Assembly: GCA_021790375.1 (NCBI GenBank)
Contig: JAJYEB010000001.1
Coordinates: 1 to 24,265 of the forward strand
DNA length: 24,265 nucleotides
Direction: 5' to 3'
Source of the DNA: Chloroflexota bacterium
GTDB taxonomy: Bacteria > Chloroflexota > Limnocylindria > Limnocylindrales > CSP1-4
Both the position numbers and the translations under genes were made by a program. Below the pieces are notes generated by a model that worked only from the letters and a program-made list of their open reading frames with translations, was not told the DNA's origin and made no database searches. Positions 10,109 to 18,501 of the stretch are shown here, piece by piece. Each line of letters opens with the position of its first letter. The stretch's first letter is position 1.

Positions 10109-11371
10109 TCAGTCGCCGTCGTAGCGCTTGAAGATCACCGCCCCGTTGTGGCCGCCGAGCCCGACGTTCTCGGACATGGCGTACCGGATGCGCATCGGCC
10201 GGGCGGTGGTCGAGATGTTGAGCTGGATCTCCGGGTCGGGGTCACGGTAGTTGATGGTGGGGGGCACGACCTGGTGGTACACGCTGAGCACCGTGGCGAG
10301 CCCTTCGAACGATCCGGCGGCACCCATCATGTGCCCGGTCATCGACTTCGTGGCACTGATCGCGATGTCCGCGGTGTGGTCGCCGAAGACGCGGTGGAAG
10401 GCCTGGGACTCGGCCAGGTCTCCCAGCGGGGTGGACGTGCCGTGCGGGTTGATCATGTCGATCTCGTCGGCCGGGACCCCACGACGGGCCAGGGCCATCT
10501 CCATCGCCCGCGCCACGCCGTCGCCGCCCTCGATCGGCTGGATCAGGTCCCAGGCGTCGTTGGTCGAGCCGTAGCCCACGACCTCGGCGTAGATCCTCGC
10601 CCCGCGAGCCTTCGCGAGCTCCAGGTCCTCCAGCACCAGGGCGGCCGCGCCCTCGCCCAGGATGAACCCGTTGCGGGTCAGGTCGAACGGCCGCGACACG
10701 GTCTGGATCGGCTCCCCGGGCCGGGGCGACCCGATCCCGCGCATGTTCCCGAAACCCACCCAGACCATCTCGTAGATGGGCGACTCGGTGGAGCCGGCGA
10801 TCACCGCGGTGCAGTCGCCGCGGCGGATGGCCTCGGCGGCCTCGCCGATCGAGTGCGTGCCGGTCGAGCAGGCAGTGACGACGGCCATGTTGTGGCCGCG
10901 GATGCCGGTCTCGATCGCGATCTGGCCGGACGCGGTGTCCACCAGCATGTTGGCGATGAAGAACGGGCTGACCAGCCGCGCGCCCTTCGTGTCCCAGGTT
11001 TCCTTGTTGTCCATCATGAGCTTCGGCTCGCCGGCACCCGACGCGAAGATGATGCCGATGTCGTCGCGGTTGTCCGGCGTGACCTCGATGCCCGAGTCGG
11101 CCAGCGCCTGCTTCGCGGCGGCCACCCCGAACTGGACGTTGAGCCCGGTGCGGCGGGCGGCCTTGAAGTCCATCCAGTCGCGCGCCTCGAAGCCCTTGAC
11201 CTCGCCGGCGGCGTTCGATTCGTAGGCGGAGGCGTCGAAGCGGGTGATCGGGGCGAGCCCGCTGCAGCCGCCGGCCAGGTTCTTCCAGACGGTGTCCACG
11301 TCGTTGCCCACCGGGCTGACGGTGCCGAGACCGGTGACGGCGACGCGGCGGTTGTAGTCAGGGCGACGCAT
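10109..11371 (-). CDS. fabF: Beta-ketoacyl-ACP synthase II, paralogue B
   Basis: VAVTGLGTVSPVG; triad TACSTG, PHGTSTPLGD and KSMTGHMMGAAG; divergent C-terminal ENVGLGGHN. Confidence 0.93.
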   Translation of the reverse strand: MRRPDYNRRVAVTGLGTVSPVGNDVDTVWKNLAGGCSGLAPITRFDASAYESNAAGEVKGFEARDWMDFKAARRTGLNVQFGVAAAKQALADSGIEVTPDNRDDIGIIFASGAGEPKLMMDNKETWDTKGARLVSPFFIANMLVDTASGQIAIETGIRGHNMAVVTACSTGTHSIGEAAEAIRRGDCTAVIAGSTESPIYEMVWVGFGNMRGIGSPRPGEPIQTVSRPFDLTRNGFILGEGAAALVLEDLELAKARGARIYAEVVGYGSTNDAWDLIQPIEGGDGVARAMEMALARRGVPADEIDMINPHGTSTPLGDLAESQAFHRVFGDHTADIAISATKSMTGHMMGAAGSFEGLATVLSVYHQVVPPTINYRDPDPEIQLNISTTARPMRIRYAMSENVGLGGHNGAVIFKRYDGD

Positions 11372-11422
11372 GGTTCGGGGCTCTCCTGTGGGCAGGGTGG
11401 GCGAACGGTTGGCGAGGGACGG

Positions 11423-12412
11423 TCATCTGGCGGGGGCCGCGGCGGAGCCGGGGTCGGGCTGGATCGCCGGGACCGCGAGCCTGCCCGGCGCATCGGGCTC
11501 GTCGAGGGCCACGGAGGCGGCATCCAGCGCGATGCGTTTCCCCAGGCCGGTCAGGACCCTGCCCGGCCCGATCTCGACGAACATGGACACGCCGGCGGCG
11601 GACATCGCCCGGACGGCGGCCACCCAGTCGACGCCGGTGGTAAGGTGCTCGACCAGCTCGGCCCGGCAGGCCTCGCCGGTGGTCAGCGGGCTGCCGTCCG
11701 CGTTGGCCAGCAGGGGGGCGACTGGGTCGTGGAAGGGGACCGCTGCGAGGGCGGCCCGCATGCCGGCGGCCGCCTCGGACATCAGTGGAGAGTGGGCCGC
11801 GACGCTGACCGGCAGGGTCACCGCGCGTCGAGCGCCCAGCCCCCTGGCGGCGGCCACCGCGGCATCCACCGCGGCGCGCTCGCCGGAGACCACGACCTGG
11901 CCCGGGGAGTTGAGGTTCGCGATCGTGAAGATCCCGGCCGCGCTGCCGGCGGCCCTGACGTCCGGAAGGCGCTCGTCGTCGAGGCCGATGATCGCCGCCA
12001 TCGCGCCGTCCCGGCCCTGGCCGGACGCCTGCATCTGGCGCCCGCGCTCGCGCACCAGGCGAACGCCGTCCGACACCGAGATCACGCCCGCGGCGACCAT
12101 CGCGGAGTACTGGCCCATGGAATGGCCGGCATAGAAGGCGGGGGCGAGCGGCCCGGTTCCCGTGGCCGCGAGGCGTTCGTCGAGTGCCCGCAGGTAGGCG
12201 ATCGAGGTGGCCAGGAGGGCGGGCTGCGCGTTCACCGTCAGGTCCAGGTCGGCCGACTGGCCGGACCAGGCGAGGGTCGACAGTGGCTCTCCGAGCGCCG
12301 CGTCCGCCTCGGCGAAGACCGCGGCCGCCGCCGGCGACGCCTCGGCCAGTGCCTTCCCCATGCCGACGTACTGCGATCCCTGTCCCGGGAAGACGAACGC
12401 GACGGTGCCCAT
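11423..12412 (-). CDS. fabD: Malonyl-CoA:ACP transacylase
   Basis: FVFPGQGSQYVGMG, AQPALL, catalytic GHSMG, NLNSPGQVVVSG, VSVAAHSPLM and EIGPG. ATG 12412 has a GGAGGG Shine-Dalgarno. Confidence 0.96.
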   Translation of the reverse strand: MGTVAFVFPGQGSQYVGMGKALAEASPAAAAVFAEADAALGEPLSTLAWSGQSADLDLTVNAQPALLATSIAYLRALDERLAATGTGPLAPAFYAGHSMGQYSAMVAAGVISVSDGVRLVRERGRQMQASGQGRDGAMAAIIGLDDERLPDVRAAGSAAGIFTIANLNSPGQVVVSGERAAVDAAVAAARGLGARRAVTLPVSVAAHSPLMSEAAAGMRAALAAVPFHDPVAPLLANADGSPLTTGEACRAELVEHLTTGVDWVAAVRAMSAAGVSMFVEIGPGRVLTGLGKRIALDAASVALDEPDAPGRLAVPAIQPDPGSAAAPAR

Positions 12413-12520
12413 GTCCCTCCCTCTGGTACACGGGTCGTGCGGCGGACACGCCGCGACATCGGCCAGTGCGCGCACACGGTACCAGCCATGAGGGCGATCG
12501 GGCCGAATTCGTGTGCATCT

Positions 12521-12549
12521 CTGCATGGATGGGCGGCCGTAGATATGCT
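12521..12549 (+). promoter_or_regulatory. Candidate sigma70-type promoter for a leaderless marR transcript
   Basis: CTGCAT-N17-TATGCT, with the in-frame ATG 7 nt after the -10 and no Shine-Dalgarno. Confidence 0.5.
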
Positions 12550-12556
12550 TCGGGCC

Positions 12557-13171
12557 ATGGATGTCCCGGGGCGCATGAGCAACGGCGGTGCGGCGGTCAG
12601 GCAGGCGGCACGCGGTGATGCCGGGGCACGCGGTGATGCCGGGGCGCATGGCTCGGCGGCCGATGTCCTGATGAGCCGGGTCGTCGAGGCGGCCGGTGCG
12701 GAGCTGCAGAACCCGCGCCAGCTCTCGGACCGCATCGCGATGGGACGGGCGCTCTGGCGCGAGCTGGTGATCGGGTTCGCGGGCCAGCTCTCCGAGCTGC
12801 ACCTGGGGTTCACCCAGCTGGCCGCGCTCTACGCCGTGGCGGGTGCCGTCACCGTCACGGTCGGCGACCTGTCCGCGTACCTCGGTCGCTCGCCGTCGGC
12901 GACGAGCCGGCTGGTATCCGGGCTCGAACGACGCGGCCTGCTGGCGCGCCACGAGGAGCAGGCCGATCGACGGGAGCGCACCCTGGCACTGACCGAGGCG
13001 GGCGCCGCGCTGCTCGGCCAGGTCGATCGGGCCAGGGCCGAGCAGTTTCTCGCGGTGGTTCGGCCGCTCCCGGCCGCGGAGCGCGCGCTGGTGGCAATGG
13101 GCGTGGCGGCGCTCGCGGAGCGCGCGATCACGCGGCGCGGGAAGCTGATCAAGGCCGGCCTGGGCGGGTAG
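12557..13171 (+). CDS. MarR-family transcriptional regulator
   Basis: Winged-helix pattern LGFTQLAAL...VGDLSAYLGRSPSATSRLVSGLERRGLL...DRR-RTLALTEAG. Start uncertain (12557, 12575 or 12671); 12557 chosen from the -10 spacing. Confidence 0.9.
   Translation: MDVPGRMSNGGAAVRQAARGDAGARGDAGAHGSAADVLMSRVVEAAGAELQNPRQLSDRIAMGRALWRELVIGFAGQLSELHLGFTQLAALYAVAGAVTVTVGDLSAYLGRSPSATSRLVSGLERRGLLARHEEQADRRERTLALTEAGAALLGQVDRARAEQFLAVVRPLPAAERALVAMGVAALAERAITRRGKLIKAGLGG
12608..12645. repeat. Exact 18-bp tandem duplication (ARGDAG twice)
   Basis: gcacgcggtgatgccggg occurs twice in the marR 5' region. Confidence 0.9.
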
Positions 13172-13188
13172 CGCCGGGCGCGTCCGGT

Positions 13189-13671
13189 CTAGCGGTCGGT
13201 GTGCCCGGTGTAGACCAGGTTGTCGTAGAGGCTCGCGATGTACCCGGGGGTCACCACGGCCGGCGGCGTCGGCGGCGGACACTCGTAGAAGGAGCTGAGA
13301 TCTGCCGCCCACGTGAAGGCCCCCGTATCGGGGTTGAACGTGGCGGTCCAGATGGCGAGTGTCATGGTGACCGTGTCGTCCGCTGCCGCGACCTGGTACT
13401 GGCCGTGGCCGGTGGACATGTGGTGCGCACCGTCGTACCAGGCGTGGACCGTCACGGTCGCGGTGCGGTCGTTGCCGAGGTTGAGCGTCCAGGTTCCGGT
13501 CACCTGATGTGGCGGCGGTTTGATCGGCACCGTCGGGGTCTCGCTCGTGCTGCAGTAGAAGGAGCCGCCATCGAACACGCCCTTGTAGGTGGCGCCCCTG
13601 CTCTCCGCCGCCACCGGCGCGACCAGCGCGAATGCGATGAGCAGGGCCATTGGCAACGCGAATCTGCGCAT
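13189..13671 (-). CDS. Secreted hypothetical protein (160 aa)
   Basis: Sec-type signal peptide MRRFALPMALLIAFALVAPVAA, GGAGGG Shine-Dalgarno, and a beta-rich Thr/aromatic composition unlike the shadow ORFs. Confidence 0.85.
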   Translation of the reverse strand: MRRFALPMALLIAFALVAPVAAESRGATYKGVFDGGSFYCSTSETPTVPIKPPPHQVTGTWTLNLGNDRTATVTVHAWYDGAHHMSTGHGQYQVAAADDTVTMTLAIWTATFNPDTGAFTWAADLSSFYECPPPTPPAVVTPGYIASLYDNLVYTGHTDR

Positions 13672-13690
13672 GTTCCATCCCTCCGCTCGA

Positions 13691-13724
13691 CGTGCCCCGG
13701 TGCCGTGCCCCGGTGCCGTGCCCC
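13691..13724. repeat. 13-bp tandem repeat, about 2.6 copies, in the leader of the secreted-protein gene
   Basis: cgtgccccggtgc twice, plus cgtgcccc. Confidence 0.85.
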
Positions 13725-13770
13725 CGCGCGGCAGCCCGGCGCGTCGATCGACAGCACCATCCCGTACGTG

Positions 13771-13792
13771 CCGTTCCCCGGGCGTTCCCCGA
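13771..13792 (-). promoter_or_regulatory. Putative SARP-type operator, copy 1 (two CGGGGAACG direct repeats, 11-bp period)
   Basis: Minus strand reads tcggggaacgcccggggaacgg, 20/22 identical to 17043-17064. It points toward the secreted-protein gene, with GATGGT 10 nt after the second 9-mer. Confidence 0.65.
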
Positions 13793-13900
13793 ATCGCCTG
13801 TTCGCCGGGTGACGGCGTCGCTTCGGCGGCCGCGACTCCCTGTCCTCGCAGGGTCTGTTTGGCACGTCCCAGGTGACGCTGCGGTCGCTAGCCTCTCGAC

Positions 13901-16900
13901 ATGGTCAGCGCGGCGGCGCGCGGCCGACGGCCCTCGGCTGGGCCGGCCTCACCCATCCAGGCGCGTGTGCTCGGCGGGTTCGAGGTGACGGTGGCCGGCC
14001 GCGTCGTGTCGCGCGCGGCCTGGCAACGCGTGTCGGCGGAGCGGCTCGTCAAGCTGCTTCTCGTGACGCCGGGACATCGTGTTACCCGCGAAGCCGCGGC
14101 GGAGATCCTGTGGCCCGACGCGGCAGCCCAGGCGAGCCGCGCGAACCTGCGCAAGGCGGTCTACTTCGCCCACGACGCACTGGGGAGCGGGGACGCGCTG
14201 GTCGTTGACGTCCGATCCGTCGGGTTCGAACCCGATCGGCTCGACCTCGATCTCGACAGGCTCCAGGAGGCGTTCCGGGTGCTCTCCACCGGCGCGGCAG
14301 CGCCCGGTCAGGACGGTCGGTCGGGGGAGCTCGATCGCGCGACCGAGGTCGTGCTGGACCTCGGATCGCGCGAGCTGCTGCCGGACGATCCCTACGAGGA
14401 CTGGCTGTTCGCTCCCCGGGAACGTCTCCGCAGCCGCTGGCAGACCGTCGCGCTGGCGGCGGCGCGGCACGCCCACGAGTCCGGACGGACAGCCGAGGCC
14501 CATGAACTGGCCGGCCGGCTGCTCGACCGCGACCCGACCGACGAGGCGGCCCACCGCCTGGCCATCGAGCTGTATGCGGCCGAGGGGCGCCATCACGCCG
14601 CGCGCCGGCAGTTGGAGCTGTGTCGCGCGGCGCTGCGGGAGAACCTGGACGTGGACCCGTCGCCCGCGACGGAGGCGCTGCTCCGGGCGGCCGTGGCGAA
14701 GGCCGAGCGCGCAGGGACCGAACCGCCCGTTCCCCGGCTCGTCGCGCGCCACGAAGAGCTCCAGCAGATCGAGCCGCTGCTCGACCGCGTCGCGGCCGGA
14801 CAGCTCGCTGCCCTGGTGATCAGGGGGCCGGCGGGGATCGGCAAGTCCCGCCTGCTGCGGGAAGTCGTGTCGTACGCGCGGGCCGCCGGATGGAGCGTGA
14901 CCGAGTGGCAGGCGGTGGAGGCCACGCGGTCGCTGGCGTATGGCCCGTTCCGGATCGGGCTGGCCGGATCCCTCGGTCCGGGGGAACTGGCGTTGCTGGA
15001 GGATCCCGCGTCCAGCGCCATCGCGACCGTGCTCCCGTGGCTGGGCGTGCCCCCGCAGGTGGAGTTCGCCGAGCGGCAGGCGCTGGTGTCCGCGCTCGTG
15101 ACCGCGCTGGGGCGGCTCGCCGCGCGCCGCCCTGCGGTCATCGCCGTGGACGACCTTCCCTGGCTCGACCGGGCGTCGCTCGAGACGCTCGGTGCCGTCG
15201 TGTCCGGGCTCTCGAATGCGCCGATCCTGCTGGCCACGACGTACCGGGACGATGAGCCGACCGGCGAGGCACCCGCGGCGCTGGTCGACCAGATCCGGCG
15301 TGCCGGAGGCCTCGAGCTTACGCTGGGTCCGCTGGCGCCACGCGACATGGAGCCGCTGCTGCTCGGGCACCTCGGCGGCGAGTCGGTCGAGCCCCGCCTC
15401 GCCCGGCTGGCCCACGAGCACAGTGCCGGCAACCCGCTCTTCTGCCTGGAGCTGCTGCGGGCCGCGCGTGACCACGGGCGAGTCCGGCTCGACGGGGGTC
15501 GGTGGGCCATCGCGTCGGGGTCGGTCGCGGACGAGATCCCCGACAGCGTCCGGCGGCTTGTCGCGGGCCGCGCCACCAGGCTGCCGGAAGCGGCAAGGGA
15601 TCTCCTGGCCGCGGTGGCCGAGCTCGGCGGCGGGGTGTCCTTCGACACGCTCGCGGCGATGCTGCCGGACCCGCCGGGCGGGCTCGTGGCCGCGCTCGAC
15701 AGGGCGCTCGAGTCGGGGCTGCTGGTCGAACGGGGGACCGGCTACGCGTTCGCCCATCCCCTCTTTCGCCTGGTGGTACGTGGATCGGTCCCACCCAGCC
15801 GTCGCGGCGCCTTCCACCTCGCGGCAGCCCGAGCCCTCGCCGGCGTCGGCCCGGAGGCGTCCGCAGAGGATCTGTGCGTGGCGGCGGCCGCGAGCGCCGA
15901 CCCGGCAGGCATCGCCGATCATGCGCTGGCCGCCTGCGAACTGGGGATCGAGGGCGCCGTGCCCCTCGCCATTGCCTATGGATTCGAGGGGGGCGAGCGA
16001 GAGGCTCGGGTGTTCGATCACGCCGCCGCGATCGGCCTGCTCGAGCGCGCCCTCGCCGCCTGGAGGCGTCTGCCGTCGGGAGATGCCTCCGCCTACCGGG
16101 CGAGCGCGGCGTATGCGCGGCTCGGCGCCCAGTACCTGCTCCTCGGCGACGAGCCGGCGGCGACGGCGGCCTGCCGCAACGCCATCGCCGCTGCCCGGAC
16201 GCCCGATGAGCTGGTGCAGGCCTACGTCGCGCTGAGGTACATCTCGTACCGGCACGGCGACTTCGAGGCAGGACTGTCCGTCCTGGCCGAGGGTATCGCG
16301 CGGTTGCCGCCCGACGCCACGGCGATGCGGGCCCGCCTGCAGGCCGAGATCGGGTGGTCGCTGGTGCGCCTGCGCCGCCTCCCGGAGGCGCTCGAGGCAC
16401 TGGCGGGGACAGCCGGCATCCTCGAGGACCTGGGCGACCGGCCGGGTGCCATGACGGCGCTGGATTCCCTGGGCGTGCTGCTGCGGATGCTCGGGCGCGT
16501 CGAGGAGTCGATCGTGCAGCTGGAGCGGTCGCTGACCCTCGCACTCGATCTGCACGACTCCCGCGGTGAGCTGTACGCACGCATCCACCTGGTCGGGAGC
16601 CTCACGAGTGCCGGCCACCCGGCTCGGGCGAAGCCGCACGCCGAGCGGTCGCTCGAGCTGGCCCGCATGATGGGCGACCGGTACCTCGAGTCCGTCGCGG
16701 CCTGGATGGCGGCGGAGATGTCGGACTCGCGCGGTGACACGGAGGCGGCCGTCCGTCTCCGACGGCACGAACTCGACCTGCTCGCCGGGATCGGGGGCAA
16801 CGCGCACAACGAGGCGCTCGCGCACGCCCACCTGGCGGTGCTGCTCGGCCGGGCCGGAGATCCCGCGGCAGCCGGGGAGGCAAGCGCGGCGCGCGAGCTG

Positions 16901-16984
16901 GCACGCCGCTCGGAGGAGTCCGGATACCCCGAACGCATCGGCCGGGTCCTCGCGCTGGGCGACTGGAGTGCCCTGGAGGGCTGA
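13901..16984 (+). CDS. AfsR/SARP-like regulator: winged-HTH + BTAD + STAND AAA ATPase + TPR-like repeats
   Basis: N-terminal ARVLGGFEV...LVKLLL...EILWPD...NLRKAVY; BTAD (ELLPDDPYEDWL...RERL...DPTDEAAHRLAIELYAAEGR...PSPAT); Walker A GPAGIGKS; Walker B VIAVDDL; GNPLF; helical repeats at the C-terminus; no C-terminal LuxR HTH. Confidence 0.93.
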   Translation: MVSAAARGRRPSAGPASPIQARVLGGFEVTVAGRVVSRAAWQRVSAERLVKLLLVTPGHRVTREAAAEILWPDAAAQASRANLRKAVYFAHDALGSGDALVVDVRSVGFEPDRLDLDLDRLQEAFRVLSTGAAAPGQDGRSGELDRATEVVLDLGSRELLPDDPYEDWLFAPRERLRSRWQTVALAAARHAHESGRTAEAHELAGRLLDRDPTDEAAHRLAIELYAAEGRHHAARRQLELCRAALRENLDVDPSPATEALLRAAVAKAERAGTEPPVPRLVARHEELQQIEPLLDRVAAGQLAALVIRGPAGIGKSRLLREVVSYARAAGWSVTEWQAVEATRSLAYGPFRIGLAGSLGPGELALLEDPASSAIATVLPWLGVPPQVEFAERQALVSALVTALGRLAARRPAVIAVDDLPWLDRASLETLGAVVSGLSNAPILLATTYRDDEPTGEAPAALVDQIRRAGGLELTLGPLAPRDMEPLLLGHLGGESVEPRLARLAHEHSAGNPLFCLELLRAARDHGRVRLDGGRWAIASGSVADEIPDSVRRLVAGRATRLPEAARDLLAAVAELGGGVSFDTLAAMLPDPPGGLVAALDRALESGLLVERGTGYAFAHPLFRLVVRGSVPPSRRGAFHLAAARALAGVGPEASAEDLCVAAAASADPAGIADHALAACELGIEGAVPLAIAYGFEGGEREARVFDHAAAIGLLERALAAWRRLPSGDASAYRASAAYARLGAQYLLLGDEPAATAACRNAIAAARTPDELVQAYVALRYISYRHGDFEAGLSVLAEGIARLPPDATAMRARLQAEIGWSLVRLRRLPEALEALAGTAGILEDLGDRPGAMTALDSLGVLLRMLGRVEESIVQLERSLTLALDLHDSRGELYARIHLVGSLTSAGHPARAKPHAERSLELARMMGDRYLESVAAWMAAEMSDSRGDTEAAVRLRRHELDLLAGIGGNAHNEALAHAHLAVLLGRAGDPAAAGEASAARELARRSEESGYPERIGRVLALGDWSALEG

Positions 16985-17042
16985 CGGTCACCGGCCCCGA
17001 CGATCGGGCCGATCGATGGCGCCCGGCGTCGACCGCGACGGA

Positions 17043-17064
17043 TCGGGGAACGCCGGAGGAACGG
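17043..17064 (+). promoter_or_regulatory. Putative SARP-type operator, copy 2
   Basis: tcggggaacgccggaggaacgg with GGAACG half-sites at 17047 and 17058. A -10-like GACACT follows 9 nt after the second repeat and lies 6 nt before ATG 17085. Confidence 0.65.
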
Positions 17065-17084
17065 TGCCACTCGACACTGGACGC

Positions 17085-17321
17085 ATGGACGGCTCCCGGT
17101 ATCGATCCTACGTGATCCGCGTCTGGCGTCCGCTGGAGGTGGGGGACGGTGGAATCCGCGTGGCCGTGGAGGAGGTCCAGTCCGGGCGGCAGGTCGAGAT
17201 GCGCGGCAGCGCGGCCGCAGCGCTGGCGTCGGCGGTGGCCGGCGCGTTGCCCTGTCCGGAGGAGCGGCCCGTGGAGGAGCGGACCGCCGTCGGGTCGGCG
17301 ACGGGCATCGTGGAGGAGTGA
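17085..17321 (+). CDS. Small hypothetical protein (78 aa, SYVIRVW motif)
   Basis: The 3' part of ORF 16734..17321 lies in the intergenic gap. YRSYVIRVWR...IRVAVEEVQSG reads as real protein, and it sits just downstream of the conserved box. Confidence 0.72.
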   Translation: MDGSRYRSYVIRVWRPLEVGDGGIRVAVEEVQSGRQVEMRGSAAAALASAVAGALPCPEERPVEERTAVGSATGIVEE

Positions 17322-17381
17322 GGGATCCGTGGGCACGACCGGCGGTGGCGCCGGGCTCGGGGTGACAGGGAGGGACGGTCG

Positions 17382-18284
17382 ATGATCCTCGTGGTCGGGG
17401 CGACGGGAATGCTGGGCGGCGAGGTCTGCCGGCAACTCACTGTGAAGGGGGAAACGGTACGGGCCCTCGTGCGTCCCACGTCGGAGCCCGTGAAGGTGGC
17501 GGCCCTGAAGCAGCTCGGCATCGAGATCGTCGCAGGCGACCTCCGGGATCCGGCGTCGCTGGCGCAGGCGTGCCGGGGTGTCTCGGCCGTGATCACGACG
17601 GTCTCGTCGATGCCGTTCTCGTACGTTCCCGGTGAGAACGACATCCGGACCACCGACACGGACGGGGCAGCCGGTCTCATCGCGGCCGCGCGGGCGGCGG
17701 GCGTGTCGCACTTCGTGTACACGTCGTTTTCGCGCAACATCGACGACCCGTTCCCGCTCCGGGATGCCAAGCGTGCGACCGAGACGATCCTGCGAACGAG
17801 CGGGATGCGGTACACGATCCTGCGCCCGAGCTGCTTCATGGAGGTCTGGCTCACCCCGGCGGTGGGCTTCGACGCAGCCGGAGCGAAGGTGACGATCTAC
17901 GGGACGGGCGAGGCCGGCATCAGCTACATCGCGGTACCCGATGTCGCGACGTTCGCGGTGCGCAGCCTGGAGACGCCGGCTGCGTGGAACGTTGCGCTGG
18001 AGCTCGGCGGCCCGTCCGCCGTCTCGCAGGCCGAGGCAGTCCGCCTCTTCGAGCGCGTCGCGGGGCGATCCTTCGAGATCACCCACGTCCCCATGGAGGC
18101 CCTGGCGGCGCAGTACGAAGCGGCGACCGATCCGATGCAGCGTTCGTTCGCGGGCCTGATGCGGTGCGTCGCCAACGGCGACCCGATCGACATGTCCGGG
18201 ACGCTGCAGGCGATCCCGGCTCGCCTCACCGGCGTCGAGGAGTTCGCGGAGCGGGTGCTCGGGGCAGTGCCGGCGCACGTCTGA
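17382..18284 (+). CDS. NmrA-like / atypical SDR NAD(P)-binding protein
   Basis: ILVVGATGMLG Rossmann motif, ALVR, AGDLRD, GVSHFVYTS, AKRATE, YTILRPSCFME, IAVPDVA and ELGGP. GGGAGGG Shine-Dalgarno. Confidence 0.93.
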   Translation: MILVVGATGMLGGEVCRQLTVKGETVRALVRPTSEPVKVAALKQLGIEIVAGDLRDPASLAQACRGVSAVITTVSSMPFSYVPGENDIRTTDTDGAAGLIAAARAAGVSHFVYTSFSRNIDDPFPLRDAKRATETILRTSGMRYTILRPSCFMEVWLTPAVGFDAAGAKVTIYGTGEAGISYIAVPDVATFAVRSLETPAAWNVALELGGPSAVSQAEAVRLFERVAGRSFEITHVPMEALAAQYEAATDPMQRSFAGLMRCVANGDPIDMSGTLQAIPARLTGVEEFAERVLGAVPAHV

Positions 18285-18302
18285 CGAATATCGCGGGGGG
18301 TT

Positions 18303-18339
18303 GGGGGCCGGGCTTCCCGGGCACCGGGGCCCGGCCCCC
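18303..18339. terminator. GC-rich hairpin after the NmrA-like gene (terminator-like, no U-tract)
   Basis: gggggccgggc (18303-18313) pairs with gcccggccccc (18329-18339); inner cccgg/ccggg stem. It begins 18 nt after the stop, between convergent genes. Confidence 0.55.
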
Positions 18340-18345
18340 GTGCAG

Positions 18346-18453
18346 GTGCCACGGACTGTCGCGGTGCCGTGGACCCCCGCGGTGCCACGGTCTGTCGCGC
18401 TGCCCCGGACGGTCGCGCAGCCCCGGACGGTCGCGCTGCCTCGGACGCTCGCG
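18346..18453. repeat. Degenerate 18-bp minisatellite, six copies (intergenic)
   Basis: gtgccacggactgtcgcg / gtgccgtggacccccgcg / gtgccacggtctgtcgcg / ctgccccggacggtcgcg / cagccccggacggtcgcg / ctgcctcggacgctcgcg. Confidence 0.85.
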
Positions 18454-18501
18454 TGGTCGGCGATCGTCGGGGCGGCGTGATCCCCGCGTGGTCGGCGACG
18501 G

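Follow-up and report, generated by a model that had tools for sequence, protein, structure and literature searches.

Which protein, if any, reads two nearly identical 22-bp boxes that lie in opposite orientations on either side of a gene for a large multidomain regulator? The question is raised by a stretch of 24,265 nucleotides from a metagenome-assembled genome (MAG) of a Chloroflexota bacterium (GenBank assembly GCA_021790375.1, contig JAJYEB010000001.1, positions 1 to 24,265; hereinafter, the window), in which the boxes and the genes next to them occupy positions 13,189-18,284 (Table 1). An earlier reading of the window from the sequence alone (hereinafter, the sequence-only reading) interpreted this locus as a self-contained AfsR-like module. 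We conclude that the boxes are very probably the operator sites of the regulator encoded between them, which would be a large activator of the SARP family. The in silico support for this conclusion consists of the domain identity of the regulator, the geometry of the sites, their conservation, and the covariation of the recognition helix with the box.

Geometry of the boxes and of the adjoining promoters

Box 1 and box 2 are identical in 20 of 22 bases, and a direct reading places both mismatches in the spacer. The core, GGAACG-N5-GGAACG, is exact in both boxes (13772-13788 on the minus strand and 17047-17063 on the plus strand), each box points away from the regulator gene, and a hexamer of the form xANNNT follows 9-10 nt on. 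In all these respects the sequence-only reading was accurate, as it was on the flanking genes, namely, those for a 160-aa protein with a Sec signal peptide (hereinafter, SEC160) on one side, and for a 78-aa open reading frame (ORF; hereinafter, S78) and an NmrA-like protein on the other. Because no recognisable -35 hexamer is found at the usual distance in the sequence of either box promoter, both promoters bear the hallmark of activator-dependent SARP promoters.

To describe the site more generally, we aligned 27 sites from the source genome and its relatives; six further cores, which are intracoding or lack a downstream gene, were set aside. The aligned sites have the consensus c-G-g-GGAACG-C-y-s-G-g-GGAACG-s, followed after 9 nt (8 past the heptamer) by a hexamer; in other words, the layout is a heptamer GGAACGS, a 4-nt spacer, a second heptamer, 8-9 nt, and a GACACT-like hexamer. 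The hexamer has an A at position 2 in 20 of the 27 sites and a T at position 6 in 18, and is exactly GACACT in 10 sites and GAGACT in 3. Among the cores set aside, five of the six have no xANNNT hexamer at this offset, and the first heptamer in four is GGAACGG, not GGAACGC.

An alternative reading of these promoters takes GGAAC for the -35 element of an extracytoplasmic function (ECF) sigma factor and the duplication for an incidental feature. GGAAC is indeed a common ECF -35 motif, but neither half-site varies among the 27 sites, where the period is always 11 bp, and the distances from GGAAC to the hexamer, 10 nt for the 3' and 21 nt for the 5' half-site, differ from the usual 16-17 nt. In addition, the xANNNT hexamer is housekeeping-like rather than CGT-rich, and the box covaries with the SARP helix (see below). 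We therefore consider an ECF promoter highly improbable.

The arrangement is that of a SARP operator. In this family, the direct repeats have a spacing of 11 or 22 bp, and 8 bp separate the 3' repeat from the -10 element (PMC10936776). The afs box spans 22 bp and consists of two 11-bp repeats, each contacted in its first 8 bp (PMC10936776), and the PimR boxes are 22 nt long, with heptamers and 4-nt spacers (PMC5930380). The alignment of 27 sites conforms to these repeats and spacings, with its 11-bp period and 8-9 nt to the -10, and so bears out the operator geometry that had been proposed from the window.

Distribution of the box in the source genome

Within the window, the core with at most one mismatch occurs 3 times against an expectation of 0.25, a number reached in none of 100 shuffles. 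In the whole source assembly (G000; 2.19 Mb in 376 contigs, 72.7% G+C, 62% complete), the exact core is present five times, compared with about 1.1 expected from the hexamer frequency. Direct pairs of GGAACG in this genome number five at the N5 spacing and 0-3 at any other spacing that is not a multiple of three, and N5 is the sole enriched spacing among these. The scan for this pattern upstream of genes, which the sequence-only reading had called for, finds all five cores in intergenic regions, each facing a gene start. A weight matrix trained on 22 sites, all from other genomes, places the five sites at ranks 1-5 (22-40 bits); the next score is 18 bits, and nothing exceeds 14 bits in the reversed-genome control.

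G+C-rich genomes are rich in imperfect repeats, and the window alone contains 277 low-identity inverted pairs, listed by a repeat search that was uninformative for such G+C-rich DNA, so that one might take the boxes for a match by chance or for a generic dispersed repeat with no regulatory role. This explanation is contradicted by the enrichment over shuffles, other spacings and reversed controls, by the location of all five sites in front of gene starts and outside genes, and by the comparative data, in which the site is kept across genera while the spacer and the flanks diverge; we find it scarcely credible.

Linkage of the box to the regulator in related genomes

Orthologs of the regulator, with 40-92% identity, were detected in 7 of 36 genomes of the same family. 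In all 7, an exact core lies directly beside the ortholog gene, with the half-sites unchanged and the five spacer bases varying freely. Three of these genomes (G009, G010 and G036) have a box on each side of the ortholog, as in the source genome, and several orthologs have one flanking box only. At the place of box 2, an exact core is present in G001, G007, G009, G010, G014 and G036 as well as in the metagenome loci L053 and L057; at the place of box 1, it is present in G009 and G010, with a SEC160 homolog downstream. In L053, two exact boxes flank the regulator. L057, with 46% identity in the SARP domain, also has exact boxes, one of them right behind the stop codon and before a PNPOx-like gene, and L058 (40% identity) has GGAACA/GGAACG, that is, one mismatch, before an OsmC gene. 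Analogous boxes beside homologous regulators, which had been suggested as a check, are thus a regular feature of the orthologous and metagenomic loci.

The same comparison bears on the possibility, raised in the sequence-only reading, that the boxes, inverted as they are around the regulator gene, are recombination sites at which this 3.3-kb segment is inverted. The window contains no recombinase gene; single boxes lie on three other contigs of the source genome and beside several of the orthologs; and gene order does not change among the orthologs; in G009 and G010 the regulator points the same way relative to the genes around it. The sequencing runs that contain the locus are mine-drainage metagenomes, of which we examined the assembled DNA contigs (Logan). 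The contigs of three runs cross box 2 and show the reference arrangement; box 1 is covered by one X1 contig with 25 nt on one side, below the 31-nt bridging rule. A strand-changing junction is absent at either box in the contigs of four runs, although rare variants could escape contigs. Inversion is unsupported by these data, and the likelihood that we assign to it is minute.

Covariation of the recognition helix and the half-site

In a sister clade of the regulator (P0096, P0109 and P0088, one of them labelled as an Acidimicrobiales MAG), the helix ANLHKTATLARQA stands in place of ANLRKAxHFA, and the corresponding box, in three independent loci, is GGAAGG-N5-GGAAGG; TACAGT or TACGGT follows at the same 9-nt offset. 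The sister-clade operator GGAAGGTTTGAGGAAGGT overlaps the TGA stop codon of the regulator's own gene (L059, L060 and L061), so that the last codons of this regulator would be constrained by its own binding site; the gene downstream of the box encodes an 83-aa SCO4226-like protein. A third group consists of BTAD proteins of 568-571 aa with the helix ANLRKAxHFARR (ANLRKAVHFARR in Mesorhizobium japonicum). The box beside their genes is GGAACG-N5-GGAACA, is followed 9 nt later by TAGTCT or TACGGT, and faces a divergent operon that encodes a 1-Cys peroxiredoxin and a pyridine-nucleotide disulphide oxidoreductase. The residues that differ between the clades belong to the helix that a hidden Markov model alignment sets opposite T88 and R92 of AfsR, which contact bases. 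The recognition helix and the half-site covary, and this is our strongest argument for the link between the box and the regulator. The literature that we searched describes neither SARP boxes of the GGAAC type nor SARPs in Chloroflexota, and contains no paper on the Mesorhizobium pair of regulator and peroxiredoxin.

The boxes could be genuine operators and yet be read by a different protein, that is, a response regulator of the OmpR/PhoB type or a second SARP. Several observations weigh against our assignment, and two of them favour precisely such a reader. OmpR-family proteins are generally known to bind 11-bp-phased direct repeats next to the -10, and the source genome, itself only 62% complete, contains a second SARP-type gene (C351:11188-13195), which encodes a classical SARP with the helix GAKTVAFHVSRLRDAL followed by a NACHT/nSTAND-like P-loop and runs off the contig end. 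Furthermore, the -10 of box 1 (GATGGT, at a 10-nt offset) is weaker than those of the other sites; at the same offset, the promoters of the orthologous secreted-protein genes have AAGGAT (G010) and AACACT (G009). The number of cores per genome, which in itself speaks for the assignment, averages 4.25 in the eight genomes with the regulator (the source genome and the 7 others) and 0.86 in the 29 without it, with about 0.4 in a reversed-pattern control, but these genomes are kin, so that such co-occurrence counts overstate independence and are descriptive only. The covariation is limited to two types of half-site, and the signal and the physiological role are guesses from the annotations of targets, three of which have no family assignment. 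As for a different reader, however, the box is physically linked to the regulator ortholog wherever a genome contains one, as well as in the metagenome loci, and the half-site changes together with the recognition helix of this very family. The helix of the second SARP is different, and its contig contains no core with fewer than two mismatches. We regard a different reader as unlikely, and retain the regulator encoded between the boxes as the protein that most probably binds them.

Domain architecture of the regulator

The 1027-aa regulator gives Pfam matches to BTAD (E = 8.8e-9) and AAA_16 (E = 5.7e-21; weakly also to ATPase_2, AAA_22 and AAA_30), followed by TPR_12 (E = 2e-9; weakly also TPR_MalT, TPR_1 and TPR_2). 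The C-terminal TPR region is confirmed by matches to TPR structures in the PDB over residues 784-936. The P-loop is intact, its Walker A motif (residue 309) being GPAGIGKS, and a Walker B-like motif of the form hhhhDD follows.

The DNA-binding part was harder to recognise. Pfam finds no Trans_reg_C domain in the regulator even at E = 10; the domain is found in the homolog P0089 (E = 9e-10) and weakly in the family member P0070 (E = 5e-4). A full-length phmmer search of the PDB retrieves only TPR proteins and does not reach AfsR or EmbR, nor does a profile of 7 sequences. A profile of 51 sequences, covering the first 280 residues, was required, and it matches EmbR of Mycobacterium tuberculosis (PDB 2fez, 2ff4; E = 1e-15, the best SARP-domain match) and AfsR of Streptomyces coelicolor (PDB 8hvr, 8k60, 8jke; PMC10936776; E = 1.8e-15), aligned over residues 8-265. 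The AlphaFold2 (AF2) model has a pLDDT of 93, and in a Foldseek search with it the top six matches are EmbR and AfsR chains (TM 0.69-0.78; 0.69-0.70 by query for EmbR, 0.74-0.78 for AfsR), including AfsR from a transcription initiation complex. Because the profile, the model and the Foldseek search agree on EmbR and AfsR, the N-terminus is identified as a SARP domain, that is, an OmpR-type winged helix followed by a BTA domain.

The description of the regulator as AfsR-like holds in part. Like AfsR, it is a large multidomain protein with a SARP domain, C-terminal TPRs and an adjacent small ORF as the target, and in both systems a 22-bp box of two 11-bp direct repeats apparently stands in for the -35, and a weak -10 follows 8-9 nt after the 3' repeat. 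The ATPase, however, is of the AAA_16 type rather than the NB-ARC type of AfsR (Pfam finds no NB-ARC domain in the regulator), and outside the SARP domain the full-length search yields no match to AfsR. The afs box bears no relation to the half-site GGAACG, and the host is a Chloroflexota MAG, not an actinomycete, with no link of the locus to an antibiotic cluster; close homologs carry NCBI names that indicate Candidatus Limnocylindrales. EmbR, despite its SARP domain, is more distant in architecture: it has a C-terminal FHA domain, is controlled by Ser/Thr phosphorylation, and lacks both the ATPase and the TPRs.

The layout of the ATPase appears to resemble that of the PimR-type SARP-LAL regulators (PimR, PteR, FilR, SanG, PolR; PMC5930380, PMC3367932), to which we liken it by published description. 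These proteins combine a SARP domain with a P-loop ATPase of the guanylate-cyclase/LAL-like type and have no LuxR helix-turn-helix; in the regulator described here, Pfam detects no LuxR/GerE domain, and the best NCBIfam similarity of its ATPase is to the corresponding part of a kinase/cyclase fusion (TIGR03903, positions 482-880), far below the cut-off. Two heptamers with 4-nt spacers make up a PimR-type operator, a box of 22 nt that requires at least two monomers. The heptamer consensus, in contrast, is CGGCAAG in PimR boxes but GGAACGC here; the operator of PimR lies clear of the -35, whereas the box here would replace it; and PimR has one target in a polyene cluster, compared with at least five promoters here, in front of genes for hydrolases, a reductase and secreted proteins.

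The regulator gene itself has no GGAACG box facing it. The region directly upstream of it (13840-13900) is nevertheless conserved in G001, G009, G010 and G007, and contains TGGCAC-N-TCCCA about 40 nt before the start and then GTCGCTAGnnT, which is followed after 6 nt by the ATG. This pattern suggests that the mRNA of the regulator may be leaderless and that a further binding site may lie upstream.

Among the homologs, two metagenome gene calls join the regulator to a second protein, namely, P0035 (1379 aa), to an NmrA-like protein, and P0092 (1639 aa), to an alpha/beta hydrolase. These are either read-through calls across a box-driven operon or real fusions of a regulator with its target.

Table 1. 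Boxes, putative promoter elements and genes considered in this work. Plain positions refer to the window; the others give contig or locus and position.
Feature	Position	Strand	Remarks
Box 1	13771..13792	minus	two GGAACG half-sites, 11 bp apart; faces the secreted-protein gene
Box 2	17043..17064	plus	two GGAACG half-sites, 11 bp apart; 59 nt past the regulator stop; faces the small ORF
Regulator, 1027 aa	13901..16984	plus	SARP ~1-270, AAA_16 279-443, TPR ~735-1000
Putative -10 of the secreted-protein gene, GATGGT	13756..13761	minus	10 nt past the box-1 core
Putative -10 of the small ORF, GACACT	17073..17078	plus	9 nt past the core (8 past the heptamer); 6 nt before the ATG
Putative -10 of the regulator gene, TAGCCT	13889..13894	plus	6 nt before the regulator ATG; suggested by conservation
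SEC160, secreted protein, 160 aa	13189..13671	minus	Sec signal peptide, all-beta, two conserved Cys
S78, 78-aa ORF	17085..17321	plus	putatively leaderless; conserved N-terminal core of ~55 residues and variable tail
NmrA-like NAD(P)-binding protein, 300 aa	17382..18284	plus	Pfam NmrA E = 5e-34; second gene of the box-2 operon
Unlinked core, G000	C178:1902		faces an unassigned 122-aa protein, then an M20 peptidase
Unlinked core, G000	C201:4007		faces an MBL-fold lipoprotein
Unlinked core, G000	C256:3005		faces a ~400-aa protein without family assignment
Box of Mesorhizobium japonicum MAFF303099	L063:2416-2432 (BA000012 ~1.978 Mb)		beside the 568-aa BTAD gene
Second short-BTAD box	L062:2443-2459		beside the gene of a 568-571-aa BTAD protein

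A predicted regulon and its proposed activation

In the mechanism that we infer from sequence comparison, including binding, activation, leaderless starts and the signal, two SARP domains would bind side by side on the two 11-bp repeats (consensus G-g-GGAACG-C-y-s). The repeats would take the place of the missing -35, with the 3' heptamer 8-9 nt from the GACACT-like -10, and the bound domains would recruit RNA polymerase in the manner of AfsR at afsS. One of the two promoters would then give rise to the secreted beta-rich protein and the other to a leaderless mRNA for the 78-aa protein and the NmrA-like NAD(P)-binding protein, and the same regulator would serve at least three unlinked promoters in the source genome. 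The ATPase-TPR part presumably gates this activity in response to a signal.

The sequence-only reading described the module as self-contained. For the source genome this is wrong, given its three unlinked box promoters (Table 1), all of which have counterparts with a box in G001 or G010. The congener G001 contains nine cores and has an alpha/beta hydrolase as an extra target, and the extra targets in G007 are an MBL-fold hydrolase and a second NmrA-like gene. The description fits the relatives from other genera (G014, G019, G036 and G009), in which a credible box is present only at two or three promoters next to the regulator; the three extra cores of G009 have no -10.

On two contigs of G001, C5 and C13 (L030 and L032), the box, the -10 and the 5' gene segments are near-identical, which indicates that either a box-driven gene was duplicated recently or the assembly contains a duplicate. 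The N-terminus TRGPCSxRL is common to these genes and to the target on contig C256 of the source genome.

Because the targets comprise hydrolases and a reductase, to which relatives add OsmC, 1-Cys peroxiredoxin and PNPOx-like proteins, the regulon could serve a detoxification or redox-stress response rather than the control of antibiotic synthesis; the annotations suggest as much, and we put this forward as a possible but doubtful interpretation. Beside one sister-clade regulator lie genes for an FMN reductase and a catalase-peroxidase.

The small ORF and the NmrA-like gene

The frame of S78 is conserved in the alignment of the orthologous loci, and a profile of 56 columns retrieves 122 cluster representatives, nearly all of 60-130 aa, with the module at the N-terminus. 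Such a profile search was needed to reach the wider family; a word-based search returns only four near-identical proteins, and neither Pfam nor NCBIfam yields a match to S78. From the conservation of the frame and of the module, S78 is judged to be a real gene of a widespread and mostly unannotated family. A relationship between S78 and the small SCO4226-like protein encoded in the sister clade was considered and ruled out (hhalign probability 0.1%).

In the orthologs, and also in L052, L053 and L055, the start codon of the small ORF lies 6-8 nt past the -10 with no ribosome-binding site, so that a leaderless S78 mRNA is predicted; the NmrA-like gene has its own ribosome-binding site, GGGAGGGA. 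The order of S78 and the NmrA-like gene is kept in G001, G007, G009 and G010, and in G019 a box directly precedes NmrA-like genes. In three cases (L025:5665-6753 in G007, P0138 and P0151; 356-379 aa), an in-frame fusion joins the S78 module to an NmrA-like domain, which suggests that the two proteins cooperate. Behind the box in L053, the small ORF is the lone gene, so that S78 probably can act alone as well. The proposed analogy to AfsS stands for the position of the gene only; the predicted leaderless S78, with its module fused elsewhere to NmrA-like enzymes, differs from AfsS.

The secreted protein and neighbouring genes

The SEC160 family is small and lineage-restricted, with 14 clusters, and has no Pfam or NCBIfam match. 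The AF2 model (pLDDT 79) is all-beta, and its fold matches are weak and only lipocalin/calycin-like (TM below 0.5), so that we claim no fold. Feature searches of the ESM Atlas with SEC160 and with S78 retrieve unnamed clusters only, below 0.9. In G019, G036 and L053, the divergent box is upstream of different secreted proteins, two of which are very large and contain TIG/Big_1 or HYR domains.

On the minus strand, 2.5 tandem copies of a direct repeat of some 13-14 nt (GGCACGGCACCGG-like) occupy positions 13693-13733, in the 5' untranslated region of the SEC160 gene. Because this untranslated region folds no better than shuffled sequences (z = -0.35) and no Rfam family is found in 13000-18500, we propose no riboswitch or attenuator.

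A paralog of SEC160 (60% identity over the first 93 residues) is encoded on contig C118 of the source genome (L051; 3404-5509) and is cut off at the contig end. An ORF for an IS-like transposase (559 aa) lies immediately 3' of it, and the promoter of the paralog is off the contig.

On the far side of SEC160, a 1007-aa plus-strand ORF (10148-13171) was considered as a MarR protein and discarded as a spurious product of the high G+C content, on the basis of codon-position G+C and Pfam. The genes in this region encode, on the minus strand, two ketosynthases and an MpaB/Lcp-like protein, and, on the plus strand, a MarR protein of 183 aa (12620-13171), whose gene is convergent with that of SEC160.

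Implications for the SARP family

The sequence-only reading knew of no described system with these components. This overstated the novelty of the locus, the mechanism of which follows the standard SARP design and is already known; the new features are the half-site, the host phylum, the regulon unrelated to antibiotics, and the family of small proteins. To our knowledge, SARP activators have been studied almost solely as switches of antibiotic clusters in actinomycetes. With a defined operator and a predicted regulon that includes no biosynthetic cluster, the locus makes a non-antibiotic SARP accessible to experiment. The half-sites GGAACG and GGAAGG, with the matching changes in the helix, amount to a natural specificity pair, the Mesorhizobium japonicum homolog beside a peroxiredoxin gene offers a culturable test case, and the S78 family is linked by gene fusion to NmrA-like enzymes.

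Tentatively, and with considerable reservation, the regulators of GGAAC boxes may be viewed as a SARP clade that crosses phyla, with members in Chloroflexota and the alphaproteobacterium Mesorhizobium japonicum and a GGAAGG sister clade in an Acidimicrobiales MAG (Actinomycetota), and with the activation of genes for detoxification and redox stress as its core job; these would encode NmrA-like reductases, MBL-fold, alpha/beta and M20 hydrolases, OsmC, 1-Cys peroxiredoxin and PNPOx-like proteins. The signal would be a small molecule or an oxidant, sensed in the large members by the ATPase-TPR part, and S78 would be either a dedicated partner of the NmrA-like enzyme or a feedback element of the regulator. 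If this is true, stress defence would be a major role of the SARP family, and perhaps an older one than antibiotic synthesis.

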